From Xylanibacter ruminicola 23 (GTDB lineage Bacteria > Bacteroidota > Bacteroidia > Bacteroidales > Bacteroidaceae), in NCBI RefSeq assembly GCF_000025925.1, contig NC_014033.1, positions 1,290,001 to 1,322,000 on the forward strand: DNA of 32,000 nt, read 5' to 3'. How positions within the stretch are numbered: position 1 is the stretch's first letter; each line of letters opens with the position of its first letter. Both the position numbers and the translations under genes were made by a program. Positions 10,782 through 28,705 of the stretch are shown here, in pieces. A model generated the notes under the pieces. That model saw only the letters and a list, made by a program, of their open reading frames with translations, ran no database searches and was not told where the DNA came from.

Positions 10782-10819
10782 TCTATAATTTTGTTCCGTT
10801 GTTATCAGCGTTCAGGGTG

Positions 10820-10827
10820 CAAAATTA
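10820..10827 (-). promoter_or_regulatory. Bacteroidetes -7 promoter box (TAATTTTG) for the histidine kinase
   Basis: The reverse complement of caaaatta matches TAnnTTTG about 39 nt upstream of the ATG at 10781. Confidence 0.45.
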
Positions 10828-11119
10828 CTAAATAATGCTGACGTGGCAAAGTAATTTTAGAAGATTAACGCAAATCGGCCTTAAAATAAGGGCAATACGA
10901 ATAAGAATGGGGAATTTTGAAAAATGATGGTGTGCAAATTTGGGAGGATTGATGAAGGAGTTAGGTTGCCAAATCGTAACCCGTTTACGACCTCGTTGAC
11001 AGTTAAACTTTTCTAAATCCGTAGGGTGTAAAATCGCAGAATAACGAACTTCACTCCGATTGGTTTTCAATGACACGAACTGCATGGTTTTGCCGAAAAA
11101 GCGATTCGGAAATTGGTAT

Positions 11120-11127
11120 TATCTTTG
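11120..11127 (+). promoter_or_regulatory. Bacteroidetes -7 promoter box (TATCTTTG) for the integrase
   Basis: Matches TAnnTTTG 27 nt upstream of the ATG at 11154. Confidence 0.45.
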
Positions 11128-11153
11128 CAGCCCGAATTAAAAAAGGATGAAGT

Positions 11154-12383
11154 ATGTCAAGAAGCACATTCAACATTCTCTTCTATGCCAACAAGAGCAA
11201 GGAGAAAAACGGAATTGTCCCTATCATGGGACGAGTAACAATCAACGGAACGCAGTCGCAGTTCAGTTGTAAGAAGAATATCCCACTGGCCATGTGGGAT
11301 GTAAAGGGTAATTGTGCCAAGGGAAGAAGCAAGGAGGCTTTGCAGATTAACCGTGACCTTGATAATATCAAAGCGCAGATTATCAAGCATTATCAGCGTC
11401 TGTCTGACCGCGAGGGATTCGTAACGGCTGAGATGGTAAGAAATGCATATCAGGGATTGGGCAGCGAGTATGAAACGCTGCTCGGAGCCTTTGATAAAGA
11501 TATTGCCAATCTGAAACGTCGTGTAGGCAAGGACAGGGCAGAAGGGACCTACAAGATACAGATGAGGTCGAGGAACTACATTGCAGATTTCCTTCGAACA
11601 AATTACAAGCGGAACGACATTGCCATGCAAGAACTGACACCTGACTTTATCAAAGAGTTCAGTGTGTACCTTAGCAATGAACGCGGCTTGGCGCATTCCA
11701 CCATCTGGCTGTCGTGCATGCACCTGAAGGGAGTGGTAGGCAGAGCACATGATAATGGCAAGATACAGCGCAATGTCTTCGCACAGTTCCATATCAGCCC
11801 CAAATGCAAGGAACGCACATTCCTGACAGAAGAAGAGTTAAAGACGGTGATGACACATGAGTTTGAAGATGCCAATCTCGCCTTTATCCGCGACCTGTTC
11901 GTATTCATGAACTTCACGGCACTATCTTTCGTGGACTTGAAGGAACTGACTACGGACAACATTGTAGAGATAGACGGTGACAAGTGGATAATTGGCAAGC
12001 GTCACAAGACCGACGTACCCTATCAAGTGAAGCTGTTAGACGTTCCACTGCAAATTATCGAGCGTTACAGCAACTTCCCCAAGGAGAATCCGAAGTCAGT
12101 ATTCGGTGAGGTCAATTACTGGAGTGTCTGCAAGAAACTGAAGACGGTCATGAAGGAATGCGGTATAGACAAGCCTATCTCCGCTCACTGTGCAAGACAC
12201 GGCTTTGCCACAATGGCCTTAACCAATGGCATGCCCATAGAGAGCGTGAGCCGTGTACTGGGTCATACGAACATTGTCACAACTCAGATTTATGCCCGCA
12301 TCACGACCAAGAAGCTGGATAATGACCTGACAATGTTGGGTAACAAGCTTAACGCATCATTCAGTAACATCAAAACAGCATAG
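11154..12383 (+). CDS. tyrosine site-specific recombinase / integrase (Bacteroides mobile-element type)
   Basis: N-terminal arm-binding-like region (FNILFYANKSKEKNGIVPIMGRVTINGTQSQF). C-terminal catalytic motifs HCARHGFAT and LGHTNIVTTQIYARI (the R-H-R-Y family). Confidence 0.93.
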   Translation: MSRSTFNILFYANKSKEKNGIVPIMGRVTINGTQSQFSCKKNIPLAMWDVKGNCAKGRSKEALQINRDLDNIKAQIIKHYQRLSDREGFVTAEMVRNAYQGLGSEYETLLGAFDKDIANLKRRVGKDRAEGTYKIQMRSRNYIADFLRTNYKRNDIAMQELTPDFIKEFSVYLSNERGLAHSTIWLSCMHLKGVVGRAHDNGKIQRNVFAQFHISPKCKERTFLTEEELKTVMTHEFEDANLAFIRDLFVFMNFTALSFVDLKELTTDNIVEIDGDKWIIGKRHKTDVPYQVKLLDVPLQIIERYSNFPKENPKSVFGEVNYWSVCKKLKTVMKECGIDKPISAHCARHGFATMALTNGMPIESVSRVLGHTNIVTTQIYARITTKKLDNDLTMLGNKLNASFSNIKTA

Positions 12384-12387
12384 ACAC

Positions 12388-12762
12388 ATGGAACAGAGAA
12401 ACATCATTGAGTGGAGTGAGCATAGTGAGTACAGGGAACTGACTATACCGAGTGGAGAGATTTGGATGAGCGAGTCCGAACTGGTTGACCTTTTCGGAGT
12501 GTTCATCCCGAAACTAAGGAACACCATCCAAACACTCTACAAAGAGGAACTGGTGAAACCCTATGAGACAGAGCGGACTATCAAACAAAGCCGAAACCTG
12601 TACCTCACCGTATATAACATGGAGTTGGTTCTGTTACTTGCCTTCCGTCTTAACTCTTATCAGGCAAGGGCTGTCCGCAAGGAACTGATGGTACGAATTG
12701 AACGAGACCACAAGCCGTTTGAGGTGATATTTACGAATGTAGGCCGTAAACAATTCCAATAA
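12388..12762 (+). CDS. hypothetical protein, possibly ORF6N/RhuM-like DNA-binding
   Basis: Starts 4 nt after the integrase stop. The segment LYLTVYNMELVLLLAFRLNSYQARAVRKEL resembles the YNLDxIISVGYRVxSxxxxxFRxW core I recall from RhuM/ORF6N proteins. The similarity is weak. Confidence 0.4.
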   Translation: MEQRNIIEWSEHSEYRELTIPSGEIWMSESELVDLFGVFIPKLRNTIQTLYKEELVKPYETERTIKQSRNLYLTVYNMELVLLLAFRLNSYQARAVRKELMVRIERDHKPFEVIFTNVGRKQFQ

Positions 12763-12784
12763 AGGGACGATTTGGATTAAGATA

Positions 12785-12824
12785 TTGTTGCCAGTTTACT
12801 TCTATATGGAGGAACTGGCAACAA
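12785..12824. terminator. perfect 12-bp hairpin between convergent genes (terminator of the Abi/helicase operon)
   Basis: TTGTTGCCAGTT (12785-12796) pairs perfectly with AACTGGCAACAA (12813-12824) around a 16-nt loop. It lies immediately after the 948-aa ORF stop (12827-12829). Confidence 0.6.
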
Positions 12825-12826
12825 TT

Positions 12827-15673
12827 CTATTTCTCAATAATAGAGGCTAATAAATTCGTGGCTATCTCAGCATTCTTGAATCTAATGAGATTGTCTTCAA
12901 TAGAGTGGTAACCAAGGATGTTGACGCTGCCATACCATATAATGCTCTTGTCGATAATAGCAGTATGTAGGGAAAGACGGTCAATTGTGATAATCTGCAT
13001 CCCTTGATGTAGCAAACGAAGAGTATCATCGTTCTCTTCTTTTGTATAGAGTACAATTTCTATTCCATTTGCAGTTAAATCAATAAGTCGCTCTGCTATT
13101 TGTGTGTTCCTACCAATCTTTACTCTGGGACATGAAATAACTATAGAACGTTTGCACTGAGTCAAGTCTGAGATAAATGGTTGCACGAAGTTCTGACCAT
13201 CATAGATTAAGTCTGCTGTTGGGAACAGACTTTCAAACATCTCATTATTTCTGATTCTATAGCCGATTGAGGCATATCCTTTCAGACGTTTACGATACAT
13301 GGATTCGCAAACAGGAACTCGTATGTCGATATAGTCATAGACTTGCACATCCTTTTTCCCCTCAAACTCACGATGCAGTCGGCCAGTGTATTGTTGTAGT
13401 CTGCCTTTCCATGCTATGGGCGATACCAGAAACAGCGTATCGAGACGGGCATAGTCAAAGCCCTCGCCGACATACTTGCCTGTGGCAATAATAACAAGTG
13501 GCTCAGTGGAAGGAATAGAATGCAGTTGCTCCATCTTCTGGCGTTTCTCCTTGATGCTTTCAGAACCAACAAGAGTAATCACGTTAGGGCAGTGAGGTTT
13601 CAGAAGTTCTGCCAATATTGTAACATGCAAAGTCCTGTCAGTTAATATTATTGGCGAACGACCTTCTTTTTGGGCCTCAATAACATCCTTGACGATAAAC
13701 AAATTACGATATTCGTCTTCTGACAGTTGCTGAGCGACCTGAGTAAACGAAAGGGCTTCACCACTTACAGGTCTGAATGGAGTAAACCGAGGCACAAGCA
13801 ACCGCTGGAAGGTCTGGTTCTGCATCTGGGCTTTGGCATCAGTAGCATATCTGATCGGGCCACATTGCATGAAGAGAACGGGGTGATGCCCGTCTTTGCG
13901 AAATGGTGTCGCAGTCAGACCATATACATATCGGGCGTTTACAGCCTTCAAAACTTGTTCGTAATTTACAGCCGATATATGATGACATTCATCAGCTATG
14001 ACCATACCGTAGTCTTTCACAAAGGATTTTACTTCGTTATCCGTCATGCACGATTGCAAAAGGGCTATGTCGATGATACCGTGAAGCCTGTTTCCTGCTG
14101 ACGAAAGAGTACCAATAGGCGAAAGAACTTTTTTCCGTCTGTGTTTTCCAACCTCAACTTCAGGAACATCGTCTATTACAAGAAATTGCTCCAATCTCTG
14201 AACCCATTGGTCAAGTAAGGCTTTGGTATGAACCAATATCAGAGTGTTTACGCCATGCTTGGCAATAAGAGCAATACCTGTCGTCGTTTTTCCGAAAGCA
14301 GTCGTTGCAAAGAGCACACCTGTGCTATTTGCAGCCAAAGCATTAACCGCCTCTTGCTGATTATCCCGGAGTGTGCCGATGAAATGAACAGAAATAGGTC
14401 TGCCGTGATTAGTCTTGTCATCGTAGCGATAAGTAACTCCTTTCTCTTTAAGCAATGTAGTGACGACATCCTCACATCCACGAGGCAAAGCAAGATACTC
14501 ATCCGTTAAGTCAGCACACGAAATGATACGTGGTGTTGAATAGGTGGAGAGTCGCATTGCCTGTTTGCTATAGAATTCAGGATTGCGGAATGAGGCGATA
14601 CGTCTGAGGTGGTTAAGAACCTTTGATGACAATTGGCTCAATGGTATATAGAGCATATTCGAACGAGTGATAACAACCTCTGACGAGAAGTCTGATTTTT
14701 CAATCTTGGTTGCAACGGGGACTTCCCAAGGCTTGATCTCGCTAGTCTTTGATAATTCGCCAAGTGGAAGGATGTTAGAAGTCTGCCTCAATATCATTTC
14801 CAACGCATCCTCTGAGAGTTTCTTCACATTCAATAAATACTCCCATTGATCATCGTATGGCTCGAAATATTCATTCACAAACACACTGTTACCTTTTTTG
14901 CGAGCATTGCCTTGTAAGGGAAGGGCTACAAGATTACCAAAACCTCCCTCTGGCAATGTGTCCTGATTAGGAAAGAATCTGTCATATGACTTGAAATCAA
15001 TCTTCCCGTTTCTATTCATTGCTTCTGTAAGGATGGCATTACCCAATCTTCTGGCTTTCACCGCCAGTACAGGAGTCCCAAAGAATATCCACACATGAGC
15101 ACCATTGCCAGAACGGGAACGCTCGACTGAACAAGGAACGCCCCAACTCTTACACACATCGACGAATGCCAATACGTCTTCCTGATAGCCGTGTTCACAG
15201 TTCTTGTCATCAAAGTCGGTGCATAACAGGTTGCATGTATTATCCTCCTTGAGGACATATAGGCCAATAACATCTTCACCATTGACATTCTTTCCTTCCA
15301 AGTGATGGTAAAAGTCATCGTATGTCAATGGCAAGAACTGACGATTTGGGCATTCTGCACATTTATGAGCTTTCTTGTCGCAAAGCAGACGGTTCCACTC
15401 ATTCTGACAAACAGGCTGATAACCAGACTTACCGCTTGCTTTGCTATACCAGCGTCTGGCGAAGACATCCTCACGTCCTTTGAACAGATTCCGAAACAGT
15501 TCAATCTTTTCCTGTAGCGACAATTTTTGCATGGCTGTCGGCTCCTGAACAGCAGGCACAAAATCTTCACCAAGTCGTTTCCTCAACTCGGCATTTTCGA
15601 CTTCCAGCTTCCTGATTCGTTCAAGAAGTTGTTGCCGTTCAGCCATCCACTCCTGATAATTCTCTAATGGCAT
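12827..15673 (-). CDS. fusion protein: coiled coil + 4-Cys + archaeo-eukaryotic primase (PrimPol-like) + SF2 DEAH helicase + degenerate PLD-like C-terminal domain
   Basis: aa 8-35: heptad-like QQLLERIRKLEVENAELRKRL. Cys residues at 89, 98, 105 and 108 (CxxC). AEP motifs TDFDD (DxD, aa 153-155) and SGNGAHVW (aa 188-195). Helicase motifs AFGKTT (Walker A, aa 459-464), DECHH (aa 561-565), LTATP (aa 586-590) and QYTGRLHR (motif VI, aa 761-768). The C-terminus LHTAIIDKSIIWYGSVNILG resembles an HKD motif but lacks the Lys at +2. It resembles proteins I recall being annotated as a TOTE conflict system AEP-domain protein; I could not verify this. Confidence 0.85.
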   Translation of the reverse strand: MPLENYQEWMAERQQLLERIRKLEVENAELRKRLGEDFVPAVQEPTAMQKLSLQEKIELFRNLFKGREDVFARRWYSKASGKSGYQPVCQNEWNRLLCDKKAHKCAECPNRQFLPLTYDDFYHHLEGKNVNGEDVIGLYVLKEDNTCNLLCTDFDDKNCEHGYQEDVLAFVDVCKSWGVPCSVERSRSGNGAHVWIFFGTPVLAVKARRLGNAILTEAMNRNGKIDFKSYDRFFPNQDTLPEGGFGNLVALPLQGNARKKGNSVFVNEYFEPYDDQWEYLLNVKKLSEDALEMILRQTSNILPLGELSKTSEIKPWEVPVATKIEKSDFSSEVVITRSNMLYIPLSQLSSKVLNHLRRIASFRNPEFYSKQAMRLSTYSTPRIISCADLTDEYLALPRGCEDVVTTLLKEKGVTYRYDDKTNHGRPISVHFIGTLRDNQQEAVNALAANSTGVLFATTAFGKTTTGIALIAKHGVNTLILVHTKALLDQWVQRLEQFLVIDDVPEVEVGKHRRKKVLSPIGTLSSAGNRLHGIIDIALLQSCMTDNEVKSFVKDYGMVIADECHHISAVNYEQVLKAVNARYVYGLTATPFRKDGHHPVLFMQCGPIRYATDAKAQMQNQTFQRLLVPRFTPFRPVSGEALSFTQVAQQLSEDEYRNLFIVKDVIEAQKEGRSPIILTDRTLHVTILAELLKPHCPNVITLVGSESIKEKRQKMEQLHSIPSTEPLVIIATGKYVGEGFDYARLDTLFLVSPIAWKGRLQQYTGRLHREFEGKKDVQVYDYIDIRVPVCESMYRKRLKGYASIGYRIRNNEMFESLFPTADLIYDGQNFVQPFISDLTQCKRSIVISCPRVKIGRNTQIAERLIDLTANGIEIVLYTKEENDDTLRLLHQGMQIITIDRLSLHTAIIDKSIIWYGSVNILGYHSIEDNLIRFKNAEIATNLLASIIEK

Positions 15674-15678
15674 AGATA

Positions 15679-16713
15679 TTATAACACCATTTGCCGGAAT
15701 CGATTTTGTAACTCTTCAAGCCGCTTTAACAGTGCATCAAAGTCCAAAGGATTGCCATAGATAAAACTCGACTTCATGTTCTCGTAGTCACTACGGAATC
15801 TGTTTTGTATTTCGCCAACGGGACAAAACGAAATCTTGTCTGGCATATCCAGTGAATAGTCAACGCCACCGACATGATAGAACTTTTTGCGATGCTCCAC
15901 AATCTCGGTATATAGAAGCACATTCTGCAATGCAGATCTCGCGTATTCTGTATCCATCAGTTTCTCCAAGTCGTAGAGGTGTCGGCTCATGCGAAGTGTT
16001 CTGGGATGTCTGCGCTGGTATTCTTCATTCAAGAGAAAGGCTTTCTCAAGAAAGGTGCGCGATGGGGATATGGTAGCAATATCGGTCATTGTCTCACCGT
16101 CATCATCCTTGAACTCATCAGAAATCAACGAAGAAATATGCTTCACCTCAAATGGTTCTTTCATTGACAGACAACTGATCTCAATTTTCACCACGGGCTT
16201 CACATATGAATGACCGGAATTAAAGATGCTGGGATAATGTACCAATAGCACTGTCGGGTCTGCGTCATGGTCAATAGGCTTTTCACCCTCTGCAGTCATG
16301 TGAGTTGTGACTGCTTCCACTTTCACGTTAAAACCTATACTTTCCAGTTTCTTTTCAAGTTCATTTTTCAGTTCACCATGTACGAAGTCACGTGATGCTT
16401 TTCGTAGCATCTTTATCTGGTTGTTGTTCTCGCATCTGGCACACGCAACACCTTTTTCTATTAGGAAGAAGTCACGATATAGAGCAATGTCGATGTCTTC
16501 ACTGAATCGGTTGATGATGTTCCAGCCCTTGCTCAGACTTGTACCTCCCTTGAAATAAGTGTACTTTGATGTGCTCAGTTCGAACAATGCCTTTAATACG
16601 GTTGTCACCCACCAATCTTTTTCTACCGATTCTTGGTCGATGTTCTTCAAGTCCGATATACGGTTGACCATATAAAGACGGTCTGCCAAGTTGTTATCTA
16701 TCCATCTACTCAT
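15679..16713 (-). CDS. abiEii: AbiEii/AbiGii-family nucleotidyltransferase toxin (DUF1814)
   Basis: YFKGGTSLSKGWNIINRFSEDIDIALY is the GGTxL ... RxSxDID nucleotidyltransferase signature of AbiEii. The 344-aa size fits. Its start overlaps the stop of the upstream AbiEi-like gene by 8 nt. Confidence 0.85.
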   Translation of the reverse strand: MSRWIDNNLADRLYMVNRISDLKNIDQESVEKDWWVTTVLKALFELSTSKYTYFKGGTSLSKGWNIINRFSEDIDIALYRDFFLIEKGVACARCENNNQIKMLRKASRDFVHGELKNELEKKLESIGFNVKVEAVTTHMTAEGEKPIDHDADPTVLLVHYPSIFNSGHSYVKPVVKIEISCLSMKEPFEVKHISSLISDEFKDDDGETMTDIATISPSRTFLEKAFLLNEEYQRRHPRTLRMSRHLYDLEKLMDTEYARSALQNVLLYTEIVEHRKKFYHVGGVDYSLDMPDKISFCPVGEIQNRFRSDYENMKSSFIYGNPLDFDALLKRLEELQNRFRQMVL

Positions 16714-17311
16714 GGTTAATCTCTTTTTTCAGAGTTGTTACTATCTTTCGAATCCAGGCAGGTGCAAGTTGCAAATCCTTCTGCCATGTCTTTTCTTCGG
16801 GATGCTCTGTCAACAATTTGCGTATGATGCCGATATGTTCGTCTGTCAGGTCTTCTTTGCCAATAGCCTTCAGTGCCTGTACAAGAACGGGCATCAACTC
16901 ACCTTTATAGGCAAAGTTCTTGGGAACGCTACGCCTGAGCCGGATAGTACGATTCCCTAATTTGATCTCCCTTGCAGAGCCACTGGTTATGTACTCCGAA
17001 TTCATAGGTACTTGTGTTGACAGACCTAACAGATTCATGGCCGTGTTGCCTGTTGGCAGGATCTTGGCTTTGTCGCGTTTAGCGATAGCCTTTATGATGT
17101 CGCCCACAGGAGGAAAGACAACGCCAAACTTGCTCCGCATAGGCTTGACATAGATTCCGTAGGAGATTCGCGAAATCAGTTCCTGTCCACATAACTCAGA
17201 CAATATCTGTCTTACATAGACATCATCATAATTCGGGAAACTGTTGTTGAAAAACAGACTTCCGTCCTGACTTCTGTTAATCACATTTATAATATGCTCT
17301 TTTACTGTCAT
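16706..17311 (-). CDS. abiEi: AbiEi-family (DUF6088-like) antitoxin / transcriptional regulator
   Basis: The 201-aa product has an N-terminal wHTH-like region (VRQILSELCGQELISRISYGIYVKP) and GNTAMNLLGLSTQVP, as I recall for DUF6088/AbiEi proteins. It sits immediately upstream of AbiEii and overlaps it. Confidence 0.75.
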   Translation of the reverse strand: MTVKEHIINVINRSQDGSLFFNNSFPNYDDVYVRQILSELCGQELISRISYGIYVKPMRSKFGVVFPPVGDIIKAIAKRDKAKILPTGNTAMNLLGLSTQVPMNSEYITSGSAREIKLGNRTIRLRRSVPKNFAYKGELMPVLVQALKAIGKEDLTDEHIGIIRKLLTEHPEEKTWQKDLQLAPAWIRKIVTTLKKEINHE

Positions 17312-17375
17312 TTATGCTATGATATTTTTATTCGTCAACATACAAATATTTGCAAAATTTGTTAGTTCTCGACTG

Positions 17376-17383
17376 CAAAGATA
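17376..17383 (-). promoter_or_regulatory. Bacteroidetes -7 promoter box (TATCTTTG) for the AbiEi-AbiEii-AEP/helicase operon
   Basis: The reverse complement of caaagata matches TAnnTTTG about 65 nt upstream of the AbiEi ATG at 17311. Confidence 0.45.
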
Positions 17384-17516
17384 ATACATTTTTCTTAAAT
17401 GAGAGCAATGTAGAACATATTTTTTTCTGGGGGAATGATAGAAAGAAGGATTTTCCATGCCATTCCAAGTGAAATGACACAGAAAATCCAAAGAAAAGAC
17501 AAGAACAAACATTTTT

Positions 17517-17828
17517 CTAATCTTTACGGTATGCAGGATGGTAACATTCCTCTAACAGCTTTTCAAGGTCACTCTCACGATAGAGCACCTTTCCACCTAA
17601 CTTGATGTAAGGTACAATGCCGCTGTCACGATACTCCTGCAATGTGCGACGGCTTATCTTCAGGCGGTGCGACACCTCCAAATCCGACAAGTACCGCTCT
17701 CCGTTCAACAAAGGACGATAATTGTATGTAACCTTGTCAAACAGCGTCTCAATCTCCTTCATCGACTTCATGGCATCCACCAAGCCGTCAGTTCTCAAAG
17801 TAATCAACTCTTTCAGATAATTCTCCAT
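17517..17828 (-). CDS. helix-turn-helix (excisionase/MerR-like, HTH_17-type) DNA-binding protein
   Basis: LKISRRTLQEYRDSGIVPYIKLGGKVLYRESDLEKLL is the typical excisionase-family HTH of Bacteroides mobile elements. Confidence 0.8.
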   Translation of the reverse strand: MENYLKELITLRTDGLVDAMKSMKEIETLFDKVTYNYRPLLNGERYLSDLEVSHRLKISRRTLQEYRDSGIVPYIKLGGKVLYRESDLEKLLEECYHPAYRKD

Positions 17829-17859
17829 GTTTTACTTTTGTTTATTATTCCATTCCACA

Positions 17860-18201
17860 CTAAACCATTACAGCCCCGTTGGTTCTGGGCTTTCGAGGCT
17901 TTCGCCATGCCGCATCCTTCTTCCTGTCTGCTACCACCCTCATGATGCTCTCTACATCCTCCGGCTTGTAATAAGTCTTGTGGCTAATCTGTGAATATGC
18001 CAGAGTGCCGTTGTCCCTCAACGTCTGCAACGTTCTCGGACTGATGCGCAACCTGTCGCATACCTCCTGATTATCCATCCACTCGCCCAGACGCTTGTCT
18101 GAGCCTCGCTTACCCATCTCCATCATCTTCTTGACGAAGTGATCAAACTTCCCTGCGAACTTCTCGTAGGCATCTTTTTCGATATTCACAATCTCCATCA
18201 T
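17860..18201 (-). CDS. helix-turn-helix (excisionase/MerR-like) DNA-binding protein, paralogue of the previous gene
   Basis: LRISPRTLQTLRDNGTLAYSQISHKTYYKPEDVESIM is the same HTH family. It lies in tandem with 17517-17828. Confidence 0.8.
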   Translation of the reverse strand: MMEIVNIEKDAYEKFAGKFDHFVKKMMEMGKRGSDKRLGEWMDNQEVCDRLRISPRTLQTLRDNGTLAYSQISHKTYYKPEDVESIMRVVADRKKDAAWRKPRKPRTNGAVMV

Positions 18202-18256
18202 TATTATATTTTTAAGTTATACTTCATGTTTATATGGCTCTTTTCGGAACCGTCGG

Positions 18257-18264
18257 CAAAGGTA
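18257..18264 (-). promoter_or_regulatory. Bacteroidetes -7 promoter box (TACCTTTG) for the HTH gene pair
   Basis: The reverse complement of caaaggta matches TAnnTTTG about 56 nt upstream of the ATG at 18201. Confidence 0.45.
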
Positions 18265-18306
18265 CTTCAAAAGTTCCTGTTGCCTGTTGTTTGGAAGTTT
18301 TCTTGT

Positions 18307-18323
18307 CTGAATTAACAATTCAG
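18307..18323. promoter_or_regulatory. perfect 7-3-7 palindrome upstream of the HTH promoter (candidate operator)
   Basis: CTGAATT-AAC-AATTCAG lies about 45-60 nt upstream (minus-strand sense) of the -7 box at 18257-18264. Confidence 0.3.
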
Positions 18324-18916
18324 CCTTTCTTTATTCTAATGCCCTCAGAGCTTGCTCATCAGGAAAGATACCCGCAGCATTGTGTGGCACTCCGCCACCA
18401 GCTGCGTATTAGGCTACACCCTTCTATGGCATCCCTTTGCGGCATTGCAAGCAACAGGGGGTAGTAGGCTACCCCTATTGCGGGTTGGTGCAAGCACCTT
18501 TGTGCCATTTTCCTATTTGTCAATGCGAAGGTACTACATCCACTTCATTCTTATCGCCTTTCCAAAGCATGTGTCACCGAATGTCCCACTAAAACGGTGA
18601 CATTGGTGACACTGATTCTTCAATTCCAGTGCAAAAGTAACGTTTTCCATGCCTAACTGCTACATCTCTCAGACAACTTGCGCAGTTTTGCCCTCAAAAT
18701 CGGCGCAATCAGCGCAAGCAAGGCATCATCCATCTGTTCAATTGCGGTGCGAAATTACATATTCCTGATGTAACCACCAAATTTTTAGAGGCAGTTGGCA
18801 CTCGTGGCATCGATAATGGGTGCCACGAACGCCACCATTTTCACTGAAATCACATCACTATAGCGAGTAACTTCACCAAAGGCACAATATCAACTATACC
18901 GTTAAAACATTAAAAT

Positions 18917-18948
18917 GATAAAACGATAAATTGATAAATTGCTAAATC
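18917..18948. repeat. four tandem 8-bp units (GATAAAAC GATAAATT GATAAATT GCTAAATC)
   Basis: Read directly from the sequence. The block is followed by four dispersed TGATT(G) copies between 18956 and 18997. Confidence 0.7.
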
Positions 18949-19008
18949 AGTCAGCTGATTGATTGCTCAAATGAGAAGTTGATTTTGAAATTGATTGGCA
19001 AACACACT

Positions 19009-19080
19009 CACCAATTCACCAATTGGCTGAAGGACTGACAGCACAACGGACTAATGGATGGACTGACGGATGGACTAATT
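19009..19080. repeat. tandem CACCAATT x2 followed by GGACTRA / GGATGGACTRA iterated block
   Basis: CACCAATTCACCAATT at 19009-19024. GGACTGA at 19032. GGACTAATGGATGGACTGACGGATGGACTAATT at 19048-19080. Confidence 0.7.
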
Positions 19081-19127
19081 TCACAAAGGACATGGTACAC
19101 CTTTATTATATATAGAAGCCATTGAAG

Positions 19128-19186
19128 CCACTATAGCCACTTGCTTCACCTTATCTACTTGATACAACGTATCCACTATAGCCACT
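19128..19186. repeat. 14-bp direct repeat CCACTATAGCCACT x2, start positions 45 bp apart
   Basis: Identical copies at 19128-19141 and 19173-19186. A related CACTATAGCGAG lies near 18856. Confidence 0.7.
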
Positions 19187-19290
19187 CGGAAAAACAGGGA
19201 ACCAATCACCTGAAATACCACACATCCTCTATGATGTATGCAGAATGGGGCAACATAACCCAAACGCTTGGAGGGTAATTTCAATCATCT

Positions 19291-19298
19291 TACTTTTG
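19291..19298 (+). promoter_or_regulatory. Bacteroidetes -7 promoter box (TACTTTTG) for the DUF3408/mobilization genes
   Basis: Matches TAnnTTTG 63 nt upstream of the ATG at 19361. Confidence 0.45.
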
Positions 19299-19360
19299 CC
19301 CAGAAAAACGGTCATCAGCGACAGCTTTGGCCATAGTAGTAACAATTAAACCAAAATCAA

Positions 19361-19888
19361 ATGACAGCAAAAAAGACCAAGAATGTGCCTCCGACAAAGG
19401 AAGAAGACGAGGCATTGAGAACCTTCATGTATGGTGACAGACTTCGCTCATCTATCAGCATGGAAGAACGCTACCCAGATCTTGAAGAGAGCGATAACTC
19501 CGCCATCTCCACTGACACTAATGCAGTGATTCCACCCCCTACAACAGAAGAAGCCCAAGGCCAAGAAACTTCACCAAAGAATGAACAAGAGGAAGAACCA
19601 GAGCCGAAGCCTGTTTCTTTTCCTGCTGGTAAGCAGTCACCTGCCCACCGTGTCAGCAGCAAGCAGCGTAGACTTTCACTCGATGAGTATGGCACCGTCT
19701 TTCTCCCTGTACCCAAGATTGACCACCCAAAGCCCGTGTTCATCAGCGAGTCACTACGCGACGAACTTGACAAGGTGGCACGTAGGCTCGGAGGCAAGCG
19801 GATGAGTGCATCAGGCATCGTAGAGAACATGGTCAAGCACCACTTAGGCATCTATGGGGAGGATATGGAACAATGGTTTAAACTGTGA
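19361..19888 (+). CDS. DUF3408-like protein of Bacteroides mobile elements (disordered acidic N-terminus, RHH-like C-terminus)
   Basis: The C-terminal LSLDEYGTVFLPVPKIDHPKPVFISESLRDELDKVARRLGGKRMSASGIVENMVKHHLGIY matches my memory of DUF3408 proteins found next to mob genes. Confidence 0.65.
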   Translation: MTAKKTKNVPPTKEEDEALRTFMYGDRLRSSISMEERYPDLEESDNSAISTDTNAVIPPPTTEEAQGQETSPKNEQEEEPEPKPVSFPAGKQSPAHRVSSKQRRLSLDEYGTVFLPVPKIDHPKPVFISESLRDELDKVARRLGGKRMSASGIVENMVKHHLGIYGEDMEQWFKL

Positions 19889-19966
19889 GCGATAAGACTG
19901 GAGTCTGTGACCAGACAGGCGTGGTTTGACACCGAAGGTGGCACAATCGTCTGGAAACTACGTTTT

Positions 19967-20019
19967 GAGTGCGGCGAGGTTATGTTTTCGGCATCCCGAA
20001 AACGACCTCGCCCGCACTC
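19967..20019 (+). other. long interrupted hairpin, candidate oriT
   Basis: GAGTGCGGCGAGGT ... ACCTCGCCCGCACTC form a 14-bp outer stem with a one-C bulge. They enclose a perfect GTTTTCGG-CATC-CCGAAAAC inner hairpin. The structure lies 77 nt upstream of the MobC-type gene and is followed by CAGTC repeats. Confidence 0.45.
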
Positions 20020-20095
20020 CCGTTGCGAGGGAAATCCGCTCCCCACTGGTCGCAGATTCAGTCAGTCCAGTCACTAAAGTGAATACACTGAAGCA

Positions 20096-20485
20096 ATGAT
20101 AATTACAGGCACTCAAAACACGAAGAAGCACGGAGGCAGACCGACAGTTGCTGAAGCAAGACGGTTGACAAGGGCAGTCACGGTCAAGTTCTCCAAGAAG
20201 GATTACGAAATCCTGAAAGTCAGGAGCAAGAAGGCAAATAAACACATGGCCGAGTACATCCGAGACTCTACCCTAAACCCTGATGTAGCACAGAAGCCTT
20301 TAGAGGCGGTAACAAAGGACTACCGTATGCTTGTAGGCATGGCGAACAACCTCAACCAACTCACGAAGATGGCTCACCAAGAAGGAATCATATATCTGTA
20401 TGTTCCGTTAAACAGTCTGCTGGGTGACATCAGCCATATCGTAAGAGAGTATAAACAGGACGCCGACAAAAAGAGAAAAAGATGA
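20096..20485 (+). CDS. MobC-family relaxosome accessory protein (called MobA in Bacteroides mob operons)
   Basis: YRMLVGMANNLNQLTKMAHQEG is the NLNQ(I/L) motif of the bacterial mobilisation protein MobC family. The N-terminus is RHH-like. Its stop overlaps the relaxase start by 4 nt (ATGA). Confidence 0.8.
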   Translation: MIITGTQNTKKHGGRPTVAEARRLTRAVTVKFSKKDYEILKVRSKKANKHMAEYIRDSTLNPDVAQKPLEAVTKDYRMLVGMANNLNQLTKMAHQEGIIYLYVPLNSLLGDISHIVREYKQDADKKRKR

Positions 20486-21468
20486 TAGGAAAGATTATGA
20501 AGGCTGCATCGTTCAAGCGGTGCGTCCAATACGTGACAGGCAAGGAAGATGCGAAAATCCTTGCCTCCGACGGTGTGTTGCTGATGTCAACGCAGGACAT
20601 CATTGACAGCTTTGAGTTCCAGCGGCAGTTGAATCCCAGGATCTCCAAACCCGTAGGCCATATCGCTCTGAGCTTTCTGCCAAAGGACAAGGACAAACTG
20701 ACAGACGAGATGATGGCCCGGATAGCAATGGAATATATGGAACTGATGGGCATCAAGGACACTCAGTTTATCCTTGTCCGCCACTTTGATAATGGCAATC
20801 CCCACTGCCATCTGGTCTATAACCGTATCAACAACGAGGGCAAGACCATCTCAGACCAGAACGATTTTAGACGGAACGAACAGGTGACGAAACTGCTTAA
20901 ACGGAAGTACGGACTCACTTTTTCCAATGGCAAGGGAACCACTAAAACCGAGCGATTAAGAGGAAATGAAAAGACGAGATACGAGGTTTATCACATTATT
21001 ATGAACACACTGGCACAGGCCACTTCATGGCGAGAATTCACAGATGAACTAAAGCGAAACGGTGTTACGATGGACATTGTGATGAAGAAAGATGGAAGTA
21101 CTAAGATTGCCGACATACAGGGTCTTCGCGTCACCAAAGACGGTAAGGCCTTCAAGGCTTCGCAGATTCGAAGAGGAATGACATACACAAAGATGGACAA
21201 TATTCTGAAGAGGAATGCACATAAGGAACAGGATACCAAAGCCTCTTGTCAGCAGCAGACAGGCCAAAGCGAACAACCCAGGCAAGCACAAAGACCAGAA
21301 CAAAAAGAACATCATGAAGAGTCTCAGCAGCACTCTTCCAGTTCATCCATTCCTATTCCATCATTGGGATTGTTCGATACAACTAATCCTGTCTATGACC
21401 CAGAAGATGAAGCCTTTCGTCGCCAGATGCAGCGTAAGAAAAAGAAGACGAGTCAATTAAAATTGTAG
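20482..21468 (+). CDS. relaxase / mobilization nuclease
   Basis: VGHIALSF near the N-terminus and the His-triad-like RHFDNGNPHCHLVYNRI are typical of the relaxase/mobilisation nuclease domain. The C-terminal tail is Q/S/E-rich and low-complexity. Confidence 0.88.
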   Translation: MIGKIMKAASFKRCVQYVTGKEDAKILASDGVLLMSTQDIIDSFEFQRQLNPRISKPVGHIALSFLPKDKDKLTDEMMARIAMEYMELMGIKDTQFILVRHFDNGNPHCHLVYNRINNEGKTISDQNDFRRNEQVTKLLKRKYGLTFSNGKGTTKTERLRGNEKTRYEVYHIIMNTLAQATSWREFTDELKRNGVTMDIVMKKDGSTKIADIQGLRVTKDGKAFKASQIRRGMTYTKMDNILKRNAHKEQDTKASCQQQTGQSEQPRQAQRPEQKEHHEESQQHSSSSSIPIPSLGLFDTTNPVYDPEDEAFRRQMQRKKKKTSQLKL

Positions 21469-21618: not shown

Positions 21619-23682
21619 TTACAATTTCCCTTTTAATATAGCACTCTCACTACCAACAGAATTGTACCTGTATGAACGAGTTACCTTTTTCCCATATTCA
21701 AATGTATATACTACTTTTATTGATGCATTTTGATTATATGTTTGATTATTGTTTGAATATGAAAAAGAATATACATCAGACACCGCAGAGCTAGTTACCT
21801 CTCGATGCATAAAGAATAGATTATTTATATTTGTTTTCAAAGAAAGCATTTTATAGTCCCATCCTATCGTTATTGAATATTGCCATGGAATCTTCTGGAT
21901 GATTTGGTTGTTAACAATCTGTTTTTGAGGAGTATTCACTACGAAAGATGCGTACAAGTCTTTTCTTGACACGTCTACTTGAAAGTTGCTCCACAATGTA
22001 TGCACACTTTCACTGACATCACCTGCCAATTTCGTATGTTTATAGCCTCCGTTTATTTTTATATTAATTTTAGTTGATGGTTTGTAAACAGCAGATAAAT
22101 CAAGTGAAGTCCGTTGATATCTGTTTTCGCTGGAAAAAGTATTAATGAGGTTGTCTCCATCGTAATGATAAACATTGGCAATTGCGTGATTTATATAATA
22201 GTATTGGAAGTTTGAGGAAAAAGACATATTGTCGAGACTCCAGTTGTAACTAATTCTAGGCATCAGAAGGATGCTGTTGTCCATTTTCGGATTCCCACGA
22301 CGAATCATAATACGATCTATCCGCTGTTCCGCATTATTTATTGTATTGGGACTAGGATATGTATTCCCTAATGCTAATGATAATTGCAATCTTTTTTTCT
22401 TGCTAATCATATATGCACCCATCAAATTAAGTCGAGGAGTTAAATGGCTTATAGATGGGCTTCCTGACAATTGATATGTCATATAAGAAAGTCCTGGATG
22501 AATATTTAATAGTATATTTCCATATATTCTTTTAGAATAATCAGCAAATAAAATTGTTTCAGAGGAATATAGATGCTGTTTCCTATTTTCACTTAATTCA
22601 TAAGCAATTTGACTATTTCTAAAATATTCATGCAAGCTGAATGTTATACTGCTCTTATCTTTCAGTGAGATACTGTAATTCGCATTAATTTTGGTATATA
22701 AATAGTCCTCTGAAGCATTTGACTGGAATGTGTAGTCCAATTCATCATAGTACCTTTCGTATTTACGCTTTGAATAGTAACCGTCAAGAACCACATCTAT
22801 ATGTCTAGAATCAGAAATATCTTTTGAATAATATAAATATGTCGTCGGTTTAACGTATCTCTCATTTTCTTTTTTTAAAAATCTTGCGGATGGGTATGTA
22901 GAAGAGTAAGAAATAAAGCCTTCATTGGTATCTTTACCTGTTTTTTGGCGTTCGATGCCAGCCCTTATCATCCACATCTGCTTTTTATCAATTTTGCTGA
23001 TACTTGCAATCCCATACAAGTTTTCCAGACGATTATTTAGAGAGTAACTGCTATTCTTGATTAAGTTTCCTGTTTTGAAATTTACATATCTTTCAGCCTC
23101 TTCATCATTGTCATTTAAACCACAAACATTGTATCCGCCCCATACATTAATATTATAATTGTTGAAAGAGTATTTTGAAACAAGATTGTAATCACCAATA
23201 AGATAGCCAATGCCTTGTTTACCTTCCAGCAAAGTATATCCTCCAGACGTAGGTTCTTTTAAAACAAAATTTATGGATGAGGCATCGATAGAATATTTTC
23301 CTGAAGGAGAATCAAAATACTCTATCTTTGCAACTTCTTTAGGTCGTAACGATTCTATCTCACGATAAGTAGCTTTACGTCCATTTATGTAGAGTGTTGC
23401 TTGCCCTGCTGGTGTAACAACTTCTCCTTTCTGATAATCAACAGACACATTCGGTATCATCATCCGATATAACAAGTCAAAACCACTATGTGTATGTTTA
23501 CGTTGTAACTCTGTTGGAATGCATATGATATGGTCATCTTCTAACACCAAATTATTTCCTTTAACAACGATTTCTTGTAACTGAATAATATGATTAATAG
23601 AATCATTGCCTGTTGTTTGCTGCTGTGCAGTTGCTGAATTTGTAGATAATAATGTTACAAATAATACTATAATATGTCTCAT
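21619..23682 (-). CDS. outer-membrane plug/beta-barrel protein (TonB-dependent-receptor-like, OMP_b-brl_3-like)
   Basis: Signal peptide MRHIIVLFVTLLSTNSATAQ. Plug-like LQEIVVKGNN ... ATLYINGRKATYREIESLRPKEVAKIEYF. A long region rich in Y, N and S with alternating hydrophobicity suggests beta strands. Its start overlaps the stop of the rSAM gene by 1 nt (TAATG). Confidence 0.7.
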   Translation of the reverse strand: MRHIIVLFVTLLSTNSATAQQQTTGNDSINHIIQLQEIVVKGNNLVLEDDHIICIPTELQRKHTHSGFDLLYRMMIPNVSVDYQKGEVVTPAGQATLYINGRKATYREIESLRPKEVAKIEYFDSPSGKYSIDASSINFVLKEPTSGGYTLLEGKQGIGYLIGDYNLVSKYSFNNYNINVWGGYNVCGLNDNDEEAERYVNFKTGNLIKNSSYSLNNRLENLYGIASISKIDKKQMWMIRAGIERQKTGKDTNEGFISYSSTYPSARFLKKENERYVKPTTYLYYSKDISDSRHIDVVLDGYYSKRKYERYYDELDYTFQSNASEDYLYTKINANYSISLKDKSSITFSLHEYFRNSQIAYELSENRKQHLYSSETILFADYSKRIYGNILLNIHPGLSYMTYQLSGSPSISHLTPRLNLMGAYMISKKKRLQLSLALGNTYPSPNTINNAEQRIDRIMIRRGNPKMDNSILLMPRISYNWSLDNMSFSSNFQYYYINHAIANVYHYDGDNLINTFSSENRYQRTSLDLSAVYKPSTKINIKINGGYKHTKLAGDVSESVHTLWSNFQVDVSRKDLYASFVVNTPQKQIVNNQIIQKIPWQYSITIGWDYKMLSLKTNINNLFFMHREVTSSAVSDVYSFSYSNNNQTYNQNASIKVVYTFEYGKKVTRSYRYNSVGSESAILKGKL

Positions 23683-27816: not shown

Positions 27817-28691
27817 TTTTTCTTTTTAGTAGAACTTTTCTTCTGCGGATATTTCTTCTTGACATTAACACCTGGGAACTTCTCGTAGAGGATACGTGTC
27901 TTGGGAACTATCTTAACTTCATTTCCCTGAGGATCCCACATCCTTGTTACCTGCCCCGACATTCCTGTCATTTGAGAAAAATGAGCAGAAGGATCCCAAT
28001 ACTCCAACATCATAATTTCAGCAACACGTTCTGGCATATATGTGTCAATGACACCTGATTTCGGTGTCTTCATTTTAATATCATGCCCATCACCTTTCTC
28101 TATACCGATACAATTGAAACGGAAACAGCCTTCTGAATCAGATGCGTATAGTATCAAACCCGGCAAGCCGCAAAATTTCCACGGACCATCACTATATGGC
28201 AAGCCAAGTGTGTACCATACCGTCCATGTTCTACCTCTGAATGTGGTAATAGCTTTGTGGCAAGTATATTCGCATACAATGGTATCACCCTCTTGGAGTT
28301 GCCAATCAAACAGCCCATCAATCTTATCGCGACAAGAAATCCAGCCAGGCATGTGAACAAATTGCATATAGCCACTTTTGGGGGTGTTTTTAAACACTTC
28401 ATCCCGCATAGAAGCATAACCAACATAAGGATTCTTAACCCTTTTGCTAACAACGTCACTTTTGTTTTTTGCCAGGAACTCGCCAATAACACTGACAAAT
28501 TGCGATGAATTTTCCCCAATATCCAAACGCATCAAGTCTTTCTCCTGTTTGGGTTCTTCCTCAAACTTTTGATAATAAACATCATAAGTCACTGATAGAA
28601 TAGTAGAATTACTTGCATGACTATTCATCATTATCAGATATGAAGGAATAGTCATTTTTAATATAATGTTAAAAAAAGGATTCATACGCAT
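27813..28691 (-). CDS. GLPGLI family protein (Bacteroidetes-specific, function unknown)
   Basis: Contains the eponymous motif in FCGLPGLILYA, plus the family-typical N-terminal VTYDVYY...MRLDIGENSSQFVS pattern. It has a Lys-rich C-terminal tail. The N-terminus lacks a convincing signal peptide. Confidence 0.8.
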   Translation of the reverse strand: MRMNPFFNIILKMTIPSYLIMMNSHASNSTILSVTYDVYYQKFEEEPKQEKDLMRLDIGENSSQFVSVIGEFLAKNKSDVVSKRVKNPYVGYASMRDEVFKNTPKSGYMQFVHMPGWISCRDKIDGLFDWQLQEGDTIVCEYTCHKAITTFRGRTWTVWYTLGLPYSDGPWKFCGLPGLILYASDSEGCFRFNCIGIEKGDGHDIKMKTPKSGVIDTYMPERVAEIMMLEYWDPSAHFSQMTGMSGQVTRMWDPQGNEVKIVPKTRILYEKFPGVNVKKKYPQKKSSTKKKK

Positions 28692-28705
28692 ACAATCGCC
28701 TCTTT

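Follow-up and report, generated by a model that had tools for sequence, protein, structure and literature searches.

The 32,000-nucleotide window analysed here carries, on the minus strand at positions 12827..15673, a gene whose product unites in one polypeptide an AEP (archaeo-eukaryotic primase-polymerase) domain, an SF2 helicase-like ATPase and a nuclease-like tail, and the question it raises is what such a protein does on the mobile element that carries it. The gene, complete in the list of open reading frames (ORFs) and encoding 948 aa from an ATG start, is a real ORF in which every motif listed by the initial annotation is present; its product is called T below. The architecture, which had been regarded as unusual, is largely of a known kind, as the same combination of AEP and SF2 modules, N-terminal helix and Cys spacing is found in the IS-excision enhancer (IEE) of E. 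coli, and the ‘CAPP-Helicase’ type is a further instance. T is a relative of IEE and not an orphan, to which a catalytically dead nuclease-like tail has been added. Judged by homology, T is probably a long-form IEE-family (‘Z1568-like’ AEP + SF2) end-joining polymerase, carried as accessory cargo by a Prevotella mobilizable integrative element.

A Pfam search of T returned AEP-TOTE (PF22548, E=4.9e-99, aa 55-293), ResIII (4.8e-21, aa 434-592) and DEAD (7.9e-13), and because of the PF22548 and ResIII E-values and of the more than 8000 homologous clusters at 90% identity, the domain motifs are not a product of chance. The AlphaFold2 model of the whole protein has a pTM of 0.81 and a pLDDT of 89.3, and omega values of 0.04-0.16 point to purifying selection; residue conservation was scored in 150 diverse relatives with 35-56% identity. 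In the phage collection, no record spans more than 53% of T, and the matches listed lie nearly all in the helicase half (aa 303 on) at 24-27% identity.

The N-terminal segment, previously described as a coiled coil, is helical, but it consists of one predicted 34-residue helix (aa 3-36, 15566..15667, minus strand; H3-36 by DSSP on the model), and a disordered linker (aa 36-48, pLDDT <50 in the AlphaFold2 model) comes next. The helix aligns to the N-terminus of IEE in BLASTP and may act in dimerisation. In the AEP domain (aa 55-293, 14795..15511, minus strand), the signatures are intact as had been claimed: regular expressions locate TDFDD at aa 152-156, whose D153/D155 form the DxD, and SGNGAHVW at aa 188-195, and the catalytic residues D153, D155, H193 and D238 are accompanied by Y139 as the steric gate. 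The acidic residues, whose loss among homologues had been named as grounds for abandoning the assignment, are conserved (D153 in 139/145 relatives, D155 in 140/145, D238 in 134/146), as is H193 (141/145). Compared with the CAPP Prim-Pol structures 7nqd/7nqf, the domain gives a sequence E of about 5e-15 (4.7e-15 for 7nqf) and a Foldseek TMt of 0.79-0.81. Four Cys had been placed ahead of the catalytic core, and their positions, C89, C98, C105 and C108, are confirmed; they form a CX8CX6CX2C cluster (15350..15409, minus strand; regular expression and alignment of relatives) within an insertion in the N-terminal AEP part, each is kept in 127-129 of the 129-143 relatives aligned per Cys column, and the cluster may bind metal.

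The SF2 ATPase, with two RecA-like lobes, spans aa 434-805 (13259..14374, minus strand). Its motifs, also reported earlier as intact, are recovered by regular expressions as GKT Walker A (461-463), DECH (561-564), TATP (587-590) and QYTGRLHR for QxxGRxxR (761-768), and the key residues are kept in relatives (K462 in 147/147, D561/E562 in 146/146, R765 in 144/145). The module matches XPB/Rad25 by sequence and, in Foldseek, by fold at an E of about 2e-20, with UvsW and RadD also matched; it is thus of the XPB/UvsW/RadD type and not of the hexameric SF3, SF4 or MCM type. Ahead of the ATPase core lies an alpha/beta domain (aa 326-430, 14384..14698, minus strand; pLDDT mostly >90), which the long Foldseek alignments to XPB include, with ~505 columns for XPB chains of ~437 aa, and which, on the model, may be equivalent to the N-terminal DNA-binding domain of XPB/UvsW.

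All of these modules are collinear with those of IEE from E. coli O157:H7 (AAG55274.1 / WP_000233452.1; AEP ‘Z1568-like’), also designated ECs1305 (10.1101/2023.06.07.543989). In BLASTP, T aa 18-807 and IEE aa 8-777 share 42% identity (619 bits, E=0), with D153/D155/H193/D238 aligned to D142/D144/H178/D216, Y139 to Y128, and K462 and R765 to K451 and R735; in the O157:H7 protein, K451, R735 and D142/D144/H178/D216 stand at exactly the published positions (PMC9943667; 10.1101/2023.06.07.543989). T therefore displays the family features of an N-terminal AEP, a fused C-terminal SF2 module and collinear homology, and shares with IEE the N-terminal helix, the AEP D/D/H/D set, the steric-gate Tyr, the linker domain, all SF2 motifs and equal Cys spacing (C83/92/99/102 in IEE). 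RefSeq assigns E. coli IEE to the same Pfam family, and among 5426 complete E. coli genomes, 1730 have the gene.

E. coli IEE holds an AEP and an SF2 ‘helicase’ in one polypeptide (PMC9943667), and this fusion of DNA polymerase and DNA-dependent ATPase joins the ends of broken DNA and enhances transposase-dependent excision of IS3/IS1/IS30-family elements. The purified protein is a Mn2+-dependent polymerase capable of microhomology-mediated end joining (MMEJ) that requires both domains, of primer and template dislocation and of strand displacement, and it is an ATPase that does not unwind DNA (PMC9943667). Excision in E. coli requires transposase and is only marginally affected by known repair genes. 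An integrative element carries iee in E. coli, and homologues had earlier been reported from Bacteroides and Firmicutes; the literature found on IEE biochemistry makes no mention of a primase assay. To our knowledge, no other factor is dedicated to clearing insertion sequences from bacterial genomes, and work on IEE has been confined to E. coli.

The tail of T, aa 820-948 (12830..13216, minus strand), is where a PLD fold had been proposed, and structure prediction (AlphaFold2 pLDDT 93.3) and Foldseek agree on it. The best match is Zucchini (4ggk, E=8.5e-8, TMq 0.72), NucT, PLD3 and Nuc are matched too (probability 1.00 and TMq about 0.7 for all four), the pseudo-PLD proteins TrmBL2 and FAM83 are also among the matches, and a family profile of the domain finds NucT, Zucchini and Nuc in the PDB. 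As modelled, the domain has a genuine PLD fold, and with Pfam PLDc_2 it scores 21 bits against a cutoff of 27 and 34-51 bits for homologues with an intact HKD motif. The HKD-like stretch of T, LHTAIIDKSIIWYGSVN (aa 902-918 by regular expression on the translation), belongs to a degenerate motif, S901-L-H903-x4-D908-x6-G915-S916-x-N918 (12920..12973, minus strand). The initial annotation was right that the catalytic Lys is missing, but its explanation by a 2-residue deletion is rejected: in the gapless family alignment, S901 occupies the His column and H903 the Lys column of HxKx4Dx6GSxN, with D908, G915, S916 and N918 in register, so that both His and Lys have been lost, by H-to-S and K-to-H substitutions.

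HxK is kept in 8 of 90 relatives, for example P0122 (FHQKFTLIDQSIVWYGSINFLS), and the perfect HxKx4Dx6GSxN is confined to a minority. All Bacteroidales relatives are without both H and K, and the HKD motif is retained in Desulfobacterales and Sedimentibacter homologues; those in Desulfobacterales sit amid ordinary chromosomal genes, and the neighbours of HKD-intact homologues revealed nothing informative. The dN/dS of the domain, where estimable, is 0.09-0.14. Loss of the catalytic pair under retained constraint fits the earlier suggestion of a PLD domain repurposed for binding. No mention of a PLD-type domain was found in the IEE, CAPP and AEP papers searched for the term.

The carrier, a mobilizable integrative element, is placed at 10815..21468 (without strand) by Pfam matches and by homology to Prevotella sp. 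ne3005 (L013; 10815 to 21446), its right limit being provisional; host-type genes lie to its left, and no att direct repeats or tRNA targets, sought to delimit it, were found. From the left, it comprises an integrase (11154-12383, plus strand) convergent with T, a small ORF (12388-12762, plus strand), T, AbiEii (15679-16713, minus strand; PADLOC 1.3e-96), AbiEi/DUF6088 (16706-17311, minus strand; PADLOC 1.5e-60), two HTH_17 genes (17517-18201, minus strand), DUF3408 (19361-19888, plus strand), MobC/NikA (20096-20485, plus strand) and a relaxase (20482-21468, plus strand). AbiEi/AbiEii, a type IV toxin-antitoxin pair, stands directly upstream of T on the same strand, the AbiEii stop being 5 nt from the T start codon; for Bacteroidota, scanning with sigma-70 promoter and terminator models gives no useful information.

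Elsewhere, a home-made HMM found an integrase near T homologues in about 17 of the roughly 50 loci with enough downstream sequence, and the association is real, not universal. Homologues stand beside integrases in Bacteroidales integrative elements, with three tandem recombinases in Dinoroseobacter, with TniQ in Sinorhizobium, and on a transposon-rich plasmid in Bacillus; by sequence, the family appears to be accessory on mobile elements across several phyla. A 4.6-kb block of an AAA_14-DUF4143 gene and a T homologue is 99.9% identical between genomes whose adjoining integrases are just 39% identical, and in three loci (L021, L023, L047) the two genes overlap by 4 nt. Two clades account for most of their co-divergence (r=0.95), which is no proof of partnership.

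On the strength of homology to IEE as purified from E. coli, the AEP of T would be an error-prone DNA polymerase using dNTPs, a role suggested because the DxD, His, Asp and steric-gate Tyr are all present, and the XPB/UvsW-like module would be a DNA-dependent ATPase or a dsDNA clamp and not an unwinding helicase. Together, they might align either a pair of 3' single-stranded ends or a primer with a new template at short microhomologies, after which T would extend the paired ends, resulting in MMEJ or template switching. The PLD domain would descend from an active single-HKD nuclease domain, still present in some relatives, and together with the N-terminal helix may serve in dimerisation and/or in DNA-end or phosphate binding, aiding the bridging of two ends. 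These enzymatic activities are inferred for T, as are a part in the excision of IS from Prevotella and what the pseudo-PLD domain does. Against the IEE reading, the one protein known to promote IS excision is that of E. coli, at 42% identity and without a PLD domain, and the window is free of transposases and IS in a Pfam scan of its ORFs. Upstream, T is tightly coupled to genes that vary (AbiEi/Eii, AAA_14-DUF4143, HigBA), a hint of a two-part system for which the IEE model has no explanation.

Two roles had been offered earlier, a defence effector and the replicative primase-helicase of the excised element, and neither matches the closest characterised relative of T; a replicase or an anti-phage effector is less likely than an IEE-family accessory polymerase. 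As a replication or establishment enzyme, T would prime and extend DNA, either of the excised circle or of the single strand transferred to the recipient, much as conjugative primases or the primase gene of NBU1 would. T shows 57% identity across related elements (the window, L013, L031 and L033) against 43-52% for the relaxase and 31-33% for the integrase, the genes between HTH_17 and T vary, and because T equals or exceeds the backbone in conservation and is the sole DNA-synthesis gene from the left end of the element to the relaxase, it would fit a core element function. The integrase neighbours counted above point the same way, as does B. ilei, in which a block of ~5.9 kb with ATPase, T and integrase genes lies between host-type genes and appears minimal. 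However, the ATPase is a monomeric-type SF2, IEE does not unwind, Pfam detects neither PriCT nor an origin-binding domain in T, and the E. coli IEE island encodes its own P4-type (primase-type) DUF3987/YfjI protein. Moreover, homologues occur on plasmids of 100 kb to 1.4 Mb, with a separate replicon type recorded for two, the block of ATPase and T moves independently of the integrase and lacks one in Alistipes, and the repeats at 18.86-19.19 kb, once taken as iteron-like, number 2-3 short copies only. The replicative role is thereby weakened, and we consider it unlikely.

Infection-related roles start from the neighbours. AbiE/HigBA toxin-antitoxin pairs and P-loop ATPases, families typical of defence islands, lie upstream of T homologues (elsewhere AAA_14-DUF4143, ATPase_2-DUF234, SLFN-AlbA_2/HATPase_c_4 and HigBA), spaced by the 5-nt gap or 4-nt overlap already described, and such a partner might sense infection and license T on foreign DNA in an anti-phage or anti-plasmid module. 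The Pfam family bears the name of a conflict system, PADLOC scores T as a CRISPR-associated PrimPol (PDLC01465, 3.5e-87), and the union of SF2 and PLD nuclease, with HKD intact in a minority of homologues, resembles restriction-type enzymes. Yet no PADLOC system model covers the whole of T, TPR/OB/TBP and cas genes occur neither in the window nor up to two genes away in more than 60 loci, the partner varies, ordinary host genes are the neighbours in several loci, the nuclease is dead across the Bacteroidales clade, and the characterised relative works on transposition intermediates and not on phage. The defence label holds loosely, in that IEE acts against insertion sequences, but the anti-phage role is unsupported and decidedly improbable. 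A broader proposal, itself quite unlikely, would make long-form IEE the common effector of two-gene conflict cassettes on mobile elements, in which a variable upstream partner (AbiEi/AbiEii, AAA_14-DUF4143, ATPase_2-DUF234, SLFN-AlbA_2/HATPase_c_4, SatD-like/DUF3307 or HigBA) senses or gates, T uses template switching to abort the replication of intruders (such as copy-out transposons, rolling-circle plasmids or phage), and the PLD domain, ancestrally a nuclease, is in Bacteroidales now a dimerising DNA-end clamp. Least probable is a general function in the repair of double-strand breaks or in damage tolerance, by a polymerase that works like Pol theta or LigD and benefits host or element independently of transposons; the in vitro MMEJ, dislocation and strand displacement of IEE would suit it, as would the chromosomal setting of the HKD-intact Desulfobacterales homologues and the mobile-element PrimPol AgaPP, which raises survival after DNA damage and has been likened to IEE and Pol theta (PMC11724360), but the E. 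coli phenotype needs transposase, known repair genes are marginal in the excision assay, and the family is carried mostly on mobile elements.

The IEE assignment matters in that such genes, which with more than 8000 clusters at 90% identity abound in the Bacteroidales of gut and rumen, are tempting to misannotate as a ‘primase-helicase replicase’ or as ‘TOTE/CRISPR defence’, which it corrects. Most of the closer relatives of T carry the extra PLD-type domain, which some lineages keep as an intact nuclease and others as a conserved but dead copy, and it provides a handle on which nuclease and end-bridging element cooperate with the IEE polymerase.

Among known systems, IEE and T are each encoded within an integrative element, but the host phylum differs, the IEE gene lies downstream of a P4-like AlpA/DUF3987 module and that of T downstream of AbiE, and IEE, of 786 aa, ends 9 residues past the ATPase whereas T continues into a PLD-fold domain of 130 aa. 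That domain is alike in fold to the single-HKD nucleases Nuc, NucT and Zucchini/PLD6 and holds the Dx6GSxN half of their motif, with S901 and H903 in place of the catalytic His and Lys; FAM83 and TrmBL2 share with it a PLD fold without the catalytic pair. TOTE conflict systems, reportedly the subject of Aravind et al. in 2022, gave their name to the AEP family of T. The acronym denotes TPR, OB, TBP and Effector (PMC12458937), and the defining TPR-OB/CSD or TBP partners were not found near T or its homologues. None of the window ORFs scanned has a TPR-OB, TBP or cas domain, the window has no CRISPR repeat array, and cas, TPR-OB (S1/CSD) and TBP-like families are missing from the 25 Pfam families listed as commonest among the 241 neighbouring proteins at -2..+2 of homologues; because these partner genes are absent, membership of T in TOTE and in the CRISPR-associated CAPP operons is rejected. 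CAPP (CAPP_A; MpCAPP 7nqd/7nqf) shares PF22548 with T, but MpCAPP has TPR and PriCT where T has SF2 and is without the Cys-cluster insertion, a stretch that its alignment skips; the ‘CAPP-Helicase’ or non-CRISPR CAPP type, a Prim-Pol with a helicase on mobile elements, is the commonest non-CRISPR architecture (Zabrady et al. 2021). Pol theta, with a polymerase fold unrelated to that of T, and LigD differ from T, which has no ligase domain and a reversed domain order, and they are functional analogues only, as polymerases with accessory end-processing or ATPase modules in microhomology end joining, to which IEE has itself been likened (PMC9943667, PMC11724360).

The 948-codon reading frame at 12827-15673 (-) is unbroken, and searching the translation directly for patterns recovered all the motifs named in the initial annotation: TDFDD (aa 152-156) and SGNGAHVW (188-195) in the AEP part, GKT (461-463), DECH (561-564), TATP (587-590) and QYTGRLHR (761-768) in the SF2 part, cysteines 89, 98, 105 and 108, and LHTAIIDKSIIWYGSVN at aa 902-918. 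In Pfam, aa 55-293 correspond to PF22548, 'AEP-TOTE' (E=4.9e-99), and aa 434-592 to ResIII (4.8e-21), with a weak match to Helicase_C and one to PLDc_2 (aa 834-941) below threshold; the CRISPR-associated PrimPol profile of PADLOC also matches (3.5e-87). Among the 79 near-full-length relatives retrieved by plasmid tblastn is a 786-aa protein from an E. coli O157:H7 EDL933 record, whose D142/D144/H178/D216, K451 and R735 stand at the exact positions published for the IS-excision enhancer, IEE (PMC9943667; bioRxiv IEE review, 10.1101/2023.06.07.543989). The two proteins are collinear, with 42% identity (E=0) between aa 18-807 of the Xylanibacter protein and aa 8-777 of IEE; the alignment takes in an N-terminal helix common to both, and the CX8CX6CX2C cluster has identical spacing (C83/92/99/102 in IEE). 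Therefore, the single-polypeptide architecture that had been called unusual is that of IEE. E. coli IEE carries the RefSeq label 'TOTE conflict system archaeo-eukaryotic primase domain-containing protein', and 1730 of the 5426 complete E. coli genomes carry iee. In some strains (genomes H111-H113), iee is itself broken by IS1203/IS629, an IS3-family element of just the type that IEE excises.

The family is very large, with more than 8000 matching 90%-identity clusters and, at E<=1e-30, 2459 representatives at 50% identity. When the protein was aligned with 150 representatives (35-56% identity), the AEP catalytic residues were found to be kept (D153 in 139 of 145 sequences, D155 in 140/145, H193 in 141/145, D238 in 134/146), as were the SF2 residues (K462, 147/147; D561/E562, 146/146; R765, 144/145) and the four cysteines (127-129 of 129-143 aligned sequences). 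Since D153, D155 and D238 are near-universal among relatives, the poor conservation of acidic residues that had been proposed as grounds for rejecting the initial reading was not found. The steric-gate tyrosine, Y128 in IEE and Y139 here, is nearly invariant, and from this residue the use of dNTPs is predicted.

In the full-length AlphaFold2 model, built from 55 sequences (pLDDT 89.3, pTM 0.81), an N-terminal helix of 34 residues (aa 3-36) is joined by a disordered linker to the AEP domain. A second linker (aa ~301-325) leads to an alpha/beta domain (aa 326-430) and a pair of RecA-like lobes (aa 434-805), and a brief flexible linker (aa 811-818) separates these from a compact C-terminal domain. 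In Foldseek, the AEP fold matches the CAPP Prim-Pol domain (TMt about 0.8), but MpCAPP lacks the cysteine cluster: the CAPP sequence aligns with aa 56-77 and resumes at about aa 115, which makes the cluster an insertion. The ATPase fold is nearest to archaeal and eukaryotic XPB, followed by UvsW, RadD and Snf2-type translocases. XPB is mainly a dsDNA translocase. Such a likeness agrees with the finding that the SF2 domain of IEE, a DNA-dependent ATPase, does not unwind DNA (PMC9943667). Sequence, architecture and fold together make it secure that the protein belongs to the IEE family.

What IEE lacks is the C-terminal domain (aa 820-948). It is present in 90 of 151 aligned sequences, a share biased towards this long form because the query is itself long, and the remainder end at about aa 807-812. 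Modelled alone from 50 sequences (pLDDT 93.3), the domain has as its best PDB match the single-HKD nuclease Zucchini/PLD6 (E=8.5e-8, TMq 0.72), then NucT, PLD3 and Nuc, and the PLD-like domains of TrmBL2 and FAM83, which are catalytically inactive, match as well; its sequence profile retrieves NucT, Zucchini and Nuc. A perfect HxKx4Dx6GSxN motif, such as FHQKFTLIDQSIVWYGSINFLS, occurs in 8 of the 90 relatives in a gapless family alignment, and all seven HKD-intact relatives scanned pass Pfam PLDc_2 (34-51 bits, cutoff 27), against 21 bits for the present domain. In the same alignment, S901 occupies the His position and H903 the Lys position, with D908, G915, S916 and N918 kept, and the two-residue deletion previously invoked is needless; the catalytic Lys is indeed gone, as had been noted, but so is the His. 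Both are absent from all of about 45 Bacteroidales homologues; Desulfobacterales-type and Sedimentibacter homologues retain them. D836, D908, W913, G915 and R931 are nearly invariant, and omega of the domain is 0.09-0.14 where dS is estimable, indicating purifying selection (for the gene as a whole, compared with the 97%-identical copy of Prevotella sp. ne3005, it is 0.16). The PLD fold, the loss of the HKD residues and purifying selection therefore mark the domain as a conserved pseudo-enzyme of nuclease-domain origin, and the structural side of the initial annotation, with intact AEP and SF2 domains and a repurposed PLD fold, was well judged. Single-HKD PLD nucleases act as dimers, and thus dimerisation and/or DNA-end binding may be its natural role, which would suit an enzyme bringing two ends together.

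The gene lies within a mobilizable integrative element. Host-type genes (pectinesterase, enolase, TonB receptor, histidine kinase) stop at about 10.8 kb, and homology to Prevotella sp. ne3005 covers 10815-21446. A tyrosine integrase (11154-12383, +) is followed by a small ORF (12388-12762, +) that matches only N-terminal parts of PADLOC PDC-S05 (E about 1e-7), has no Pfam match and probably represents either a fragment or a small domain protein. Beyond the IEE-family gene lie AbiEii and AbiEi (15679-17311, -), the AbiEii stop being 5 nt before its start codon, two HTH_17 genes (-) and, across a 1.2-kb intergenic region, the divergent operon of DUF3408, MobC/NikA and relaxase genes (+). The right end and att repeats of the element were sought and not found, and the window contains no tRNAs, CRISPR arrays, cas genes, TPR/OB/TBP genes or transposases. 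In the gap that separates the AbiEi start from the second HTH_17 gene, an inverted repeat with a 19-bp stem (17448-17489, -) is a candidate operator or terminator for AbiEi and, as such, would split an operon of abiE and the IEE-family gene from the HTH_17 genes. The intergenic region holds two exact copies and one diverged copy of CCACTATAGCCACT (18856-18877, 19128-19141 and 19173-19186); because they number only two to three, these repeats are weak as iterons and more likely oriT or regulatory sites. In a Prevotella sp. UBA1378 MAG (locus L001), the same element is without most of the integrase and the small ORF (window 11360-12718), and is either immobilised or an assembly artefact. Just past the relaxase, a 687-aa protein with no Pfam match adjoins a radical-SAM enzyme, with HlyD and ABC-transporter genes further on (21619-24965 and 27813-31979, both -), which could be a peptide-modification and export cluster.

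Clustering of neighbours in 79 genome loci, with a bulk Pfam scan, showed that the same-strand gene directly upstream of the homologues varies: AAA_14-DUF4143 ATPase (16-18 loci), DUF3307 with a SatD-like protein (6), AbiEii/AbiEi (5), SLFN-AlbA_2/HATPase_c_4 (4-5) and ATPase_2/DUF234 (4). Downstream, tyrosine integrases (9-11) and HTH_17 (7) are the commonest families, and no TOTE or cas partners were found by Pfam at these loci. The commonest partner, the AAA_14-DUF4143 gene (e.g. L005-L008, L018-L023, L052, L071), is translationally coupled at L021, L023 and L047, its stop overlapping the next start by 4 nt; between two Bacteroidales clades, this ATPase is about 31% identical and the IEE-family protein about 61%. 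The 4.6-kb block of the two genes is 99.9% identical in B. ilei, B. gallinaceum and Phocaeicola fibrisolvens, the adjoining integrases being only 39% identical in amino acids, and in one Alistipes genome it has no integrase. Up to this identity across genera (L019 8405-13063 against L018, L020, L022, L052, L023, L047 and L021), the block has a sharp left junction and a right junction 60-90 nt inside the 3' end of otherwise dissimilar integrase genes, which suggests that cassettes are exchanged beside the 3' ends of integrases. Short-form homologues, without the PLD-fold domain, reside on large plasmids, with a separate replicon type recorded for two, beside TniQ (Sinorhizobium), HigBA (Acinetobacter) or IS/Tn3 transposases (Bacillus). 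On Dinoroseobacter shibae pDSHI01 (L080 11457-14892), three tyrosine recombinase genes in a row lie convergently after the short form, in what resembles the 'recombinase in trio' arrangement, with a strawberry-notch helicase gene beyond. Toxin-antitoxin or regulator pairs also lie directly upstream in unrelated hosts, such as HigB and an HTH regulator 26 nt upstream in A. baumannii plasmid NZ_CP038501 (L084 7228-10367), and VapBC is about 1.9 kb downstream in S. meliloti (L081 13245-13888); this proximity may reflect shared autoregulated promoters or functional pairing.

With IEE, elements of the IS3, IS1 and IS30 families are excised orders of magnitude more often, in a transposase-dependent manner; the AEP domain works as an Mn2+-dependent, error-prone DNA polymerase tolerating primer and template dislocation, and the protein joins 3' overhangs sharing at least 4 bp of microhomology, for which both domains are required (PMC9943667). 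An alternative model, in the bioRxiv review, is strand switching in the copy-out step of transposition. Both functional readings first offered, defence effector and replication primase-helicase, miss this known relative, by which the protein is probably an IEE-type polymerase/ATPase: it would act on transposase-generated intermediates, bridging and extending DNA ends or switching templates at microhomologies, and the mobilizable element would carry it as cargo.

A replication or establishment enzyme of the element itself seems unlikely. Within the element family of the window, Prevotella sp. ne3005 (L013), L031 and L033, the protein is 57% identical, against 43-52% for the relaxase and 31-33% for the integrase, and is the only DNA-synthesis gene; B. 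ilei seems to have a minimal block of ATPase, IEE-family and integrase genes between host-type genes, so a part in the element's life cycle is conceivable. An accessory, exchangeable gene is instead indicated by the near-identical ATPase-containing block beside dissimilar integrases or, in Alistipes, without one, by the short forms on plasmids, two of which have a separate replicon type on record, and by the AlpA-DUF3987/YfjI module that the E. coli island itself carries upstream of iee. It is rather doubtful that the protein works with AbiE or the other upstream partners as a defence-module effector, and a general break-repair polymerase is more improbable still.

Compared with known systems, the protein also has the 'Prim-Pol + helicase' architecture described as the commonest non-CRISPR CAPP relative on mobile elements (Zabrady et al.), and IEE homologues have already been reported from Bacteroides and Firmicutes. 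The term PLD or phospholipase is absent from the CAPP paper, the IEE biochemistry paper (PMC9943667) and the AEP classification paper, and no PLD-type domain is described in the sections consulted of the AgaPP paper and the IEE review. What appears to be new is a long form that is widespread and carries a PLD domain, active in certain lineages but in Bacteroidales a conserved dead copy, as well as the recurrent tight coupling of IEE-family genes to toxin-antitoxin or ATPase genes.
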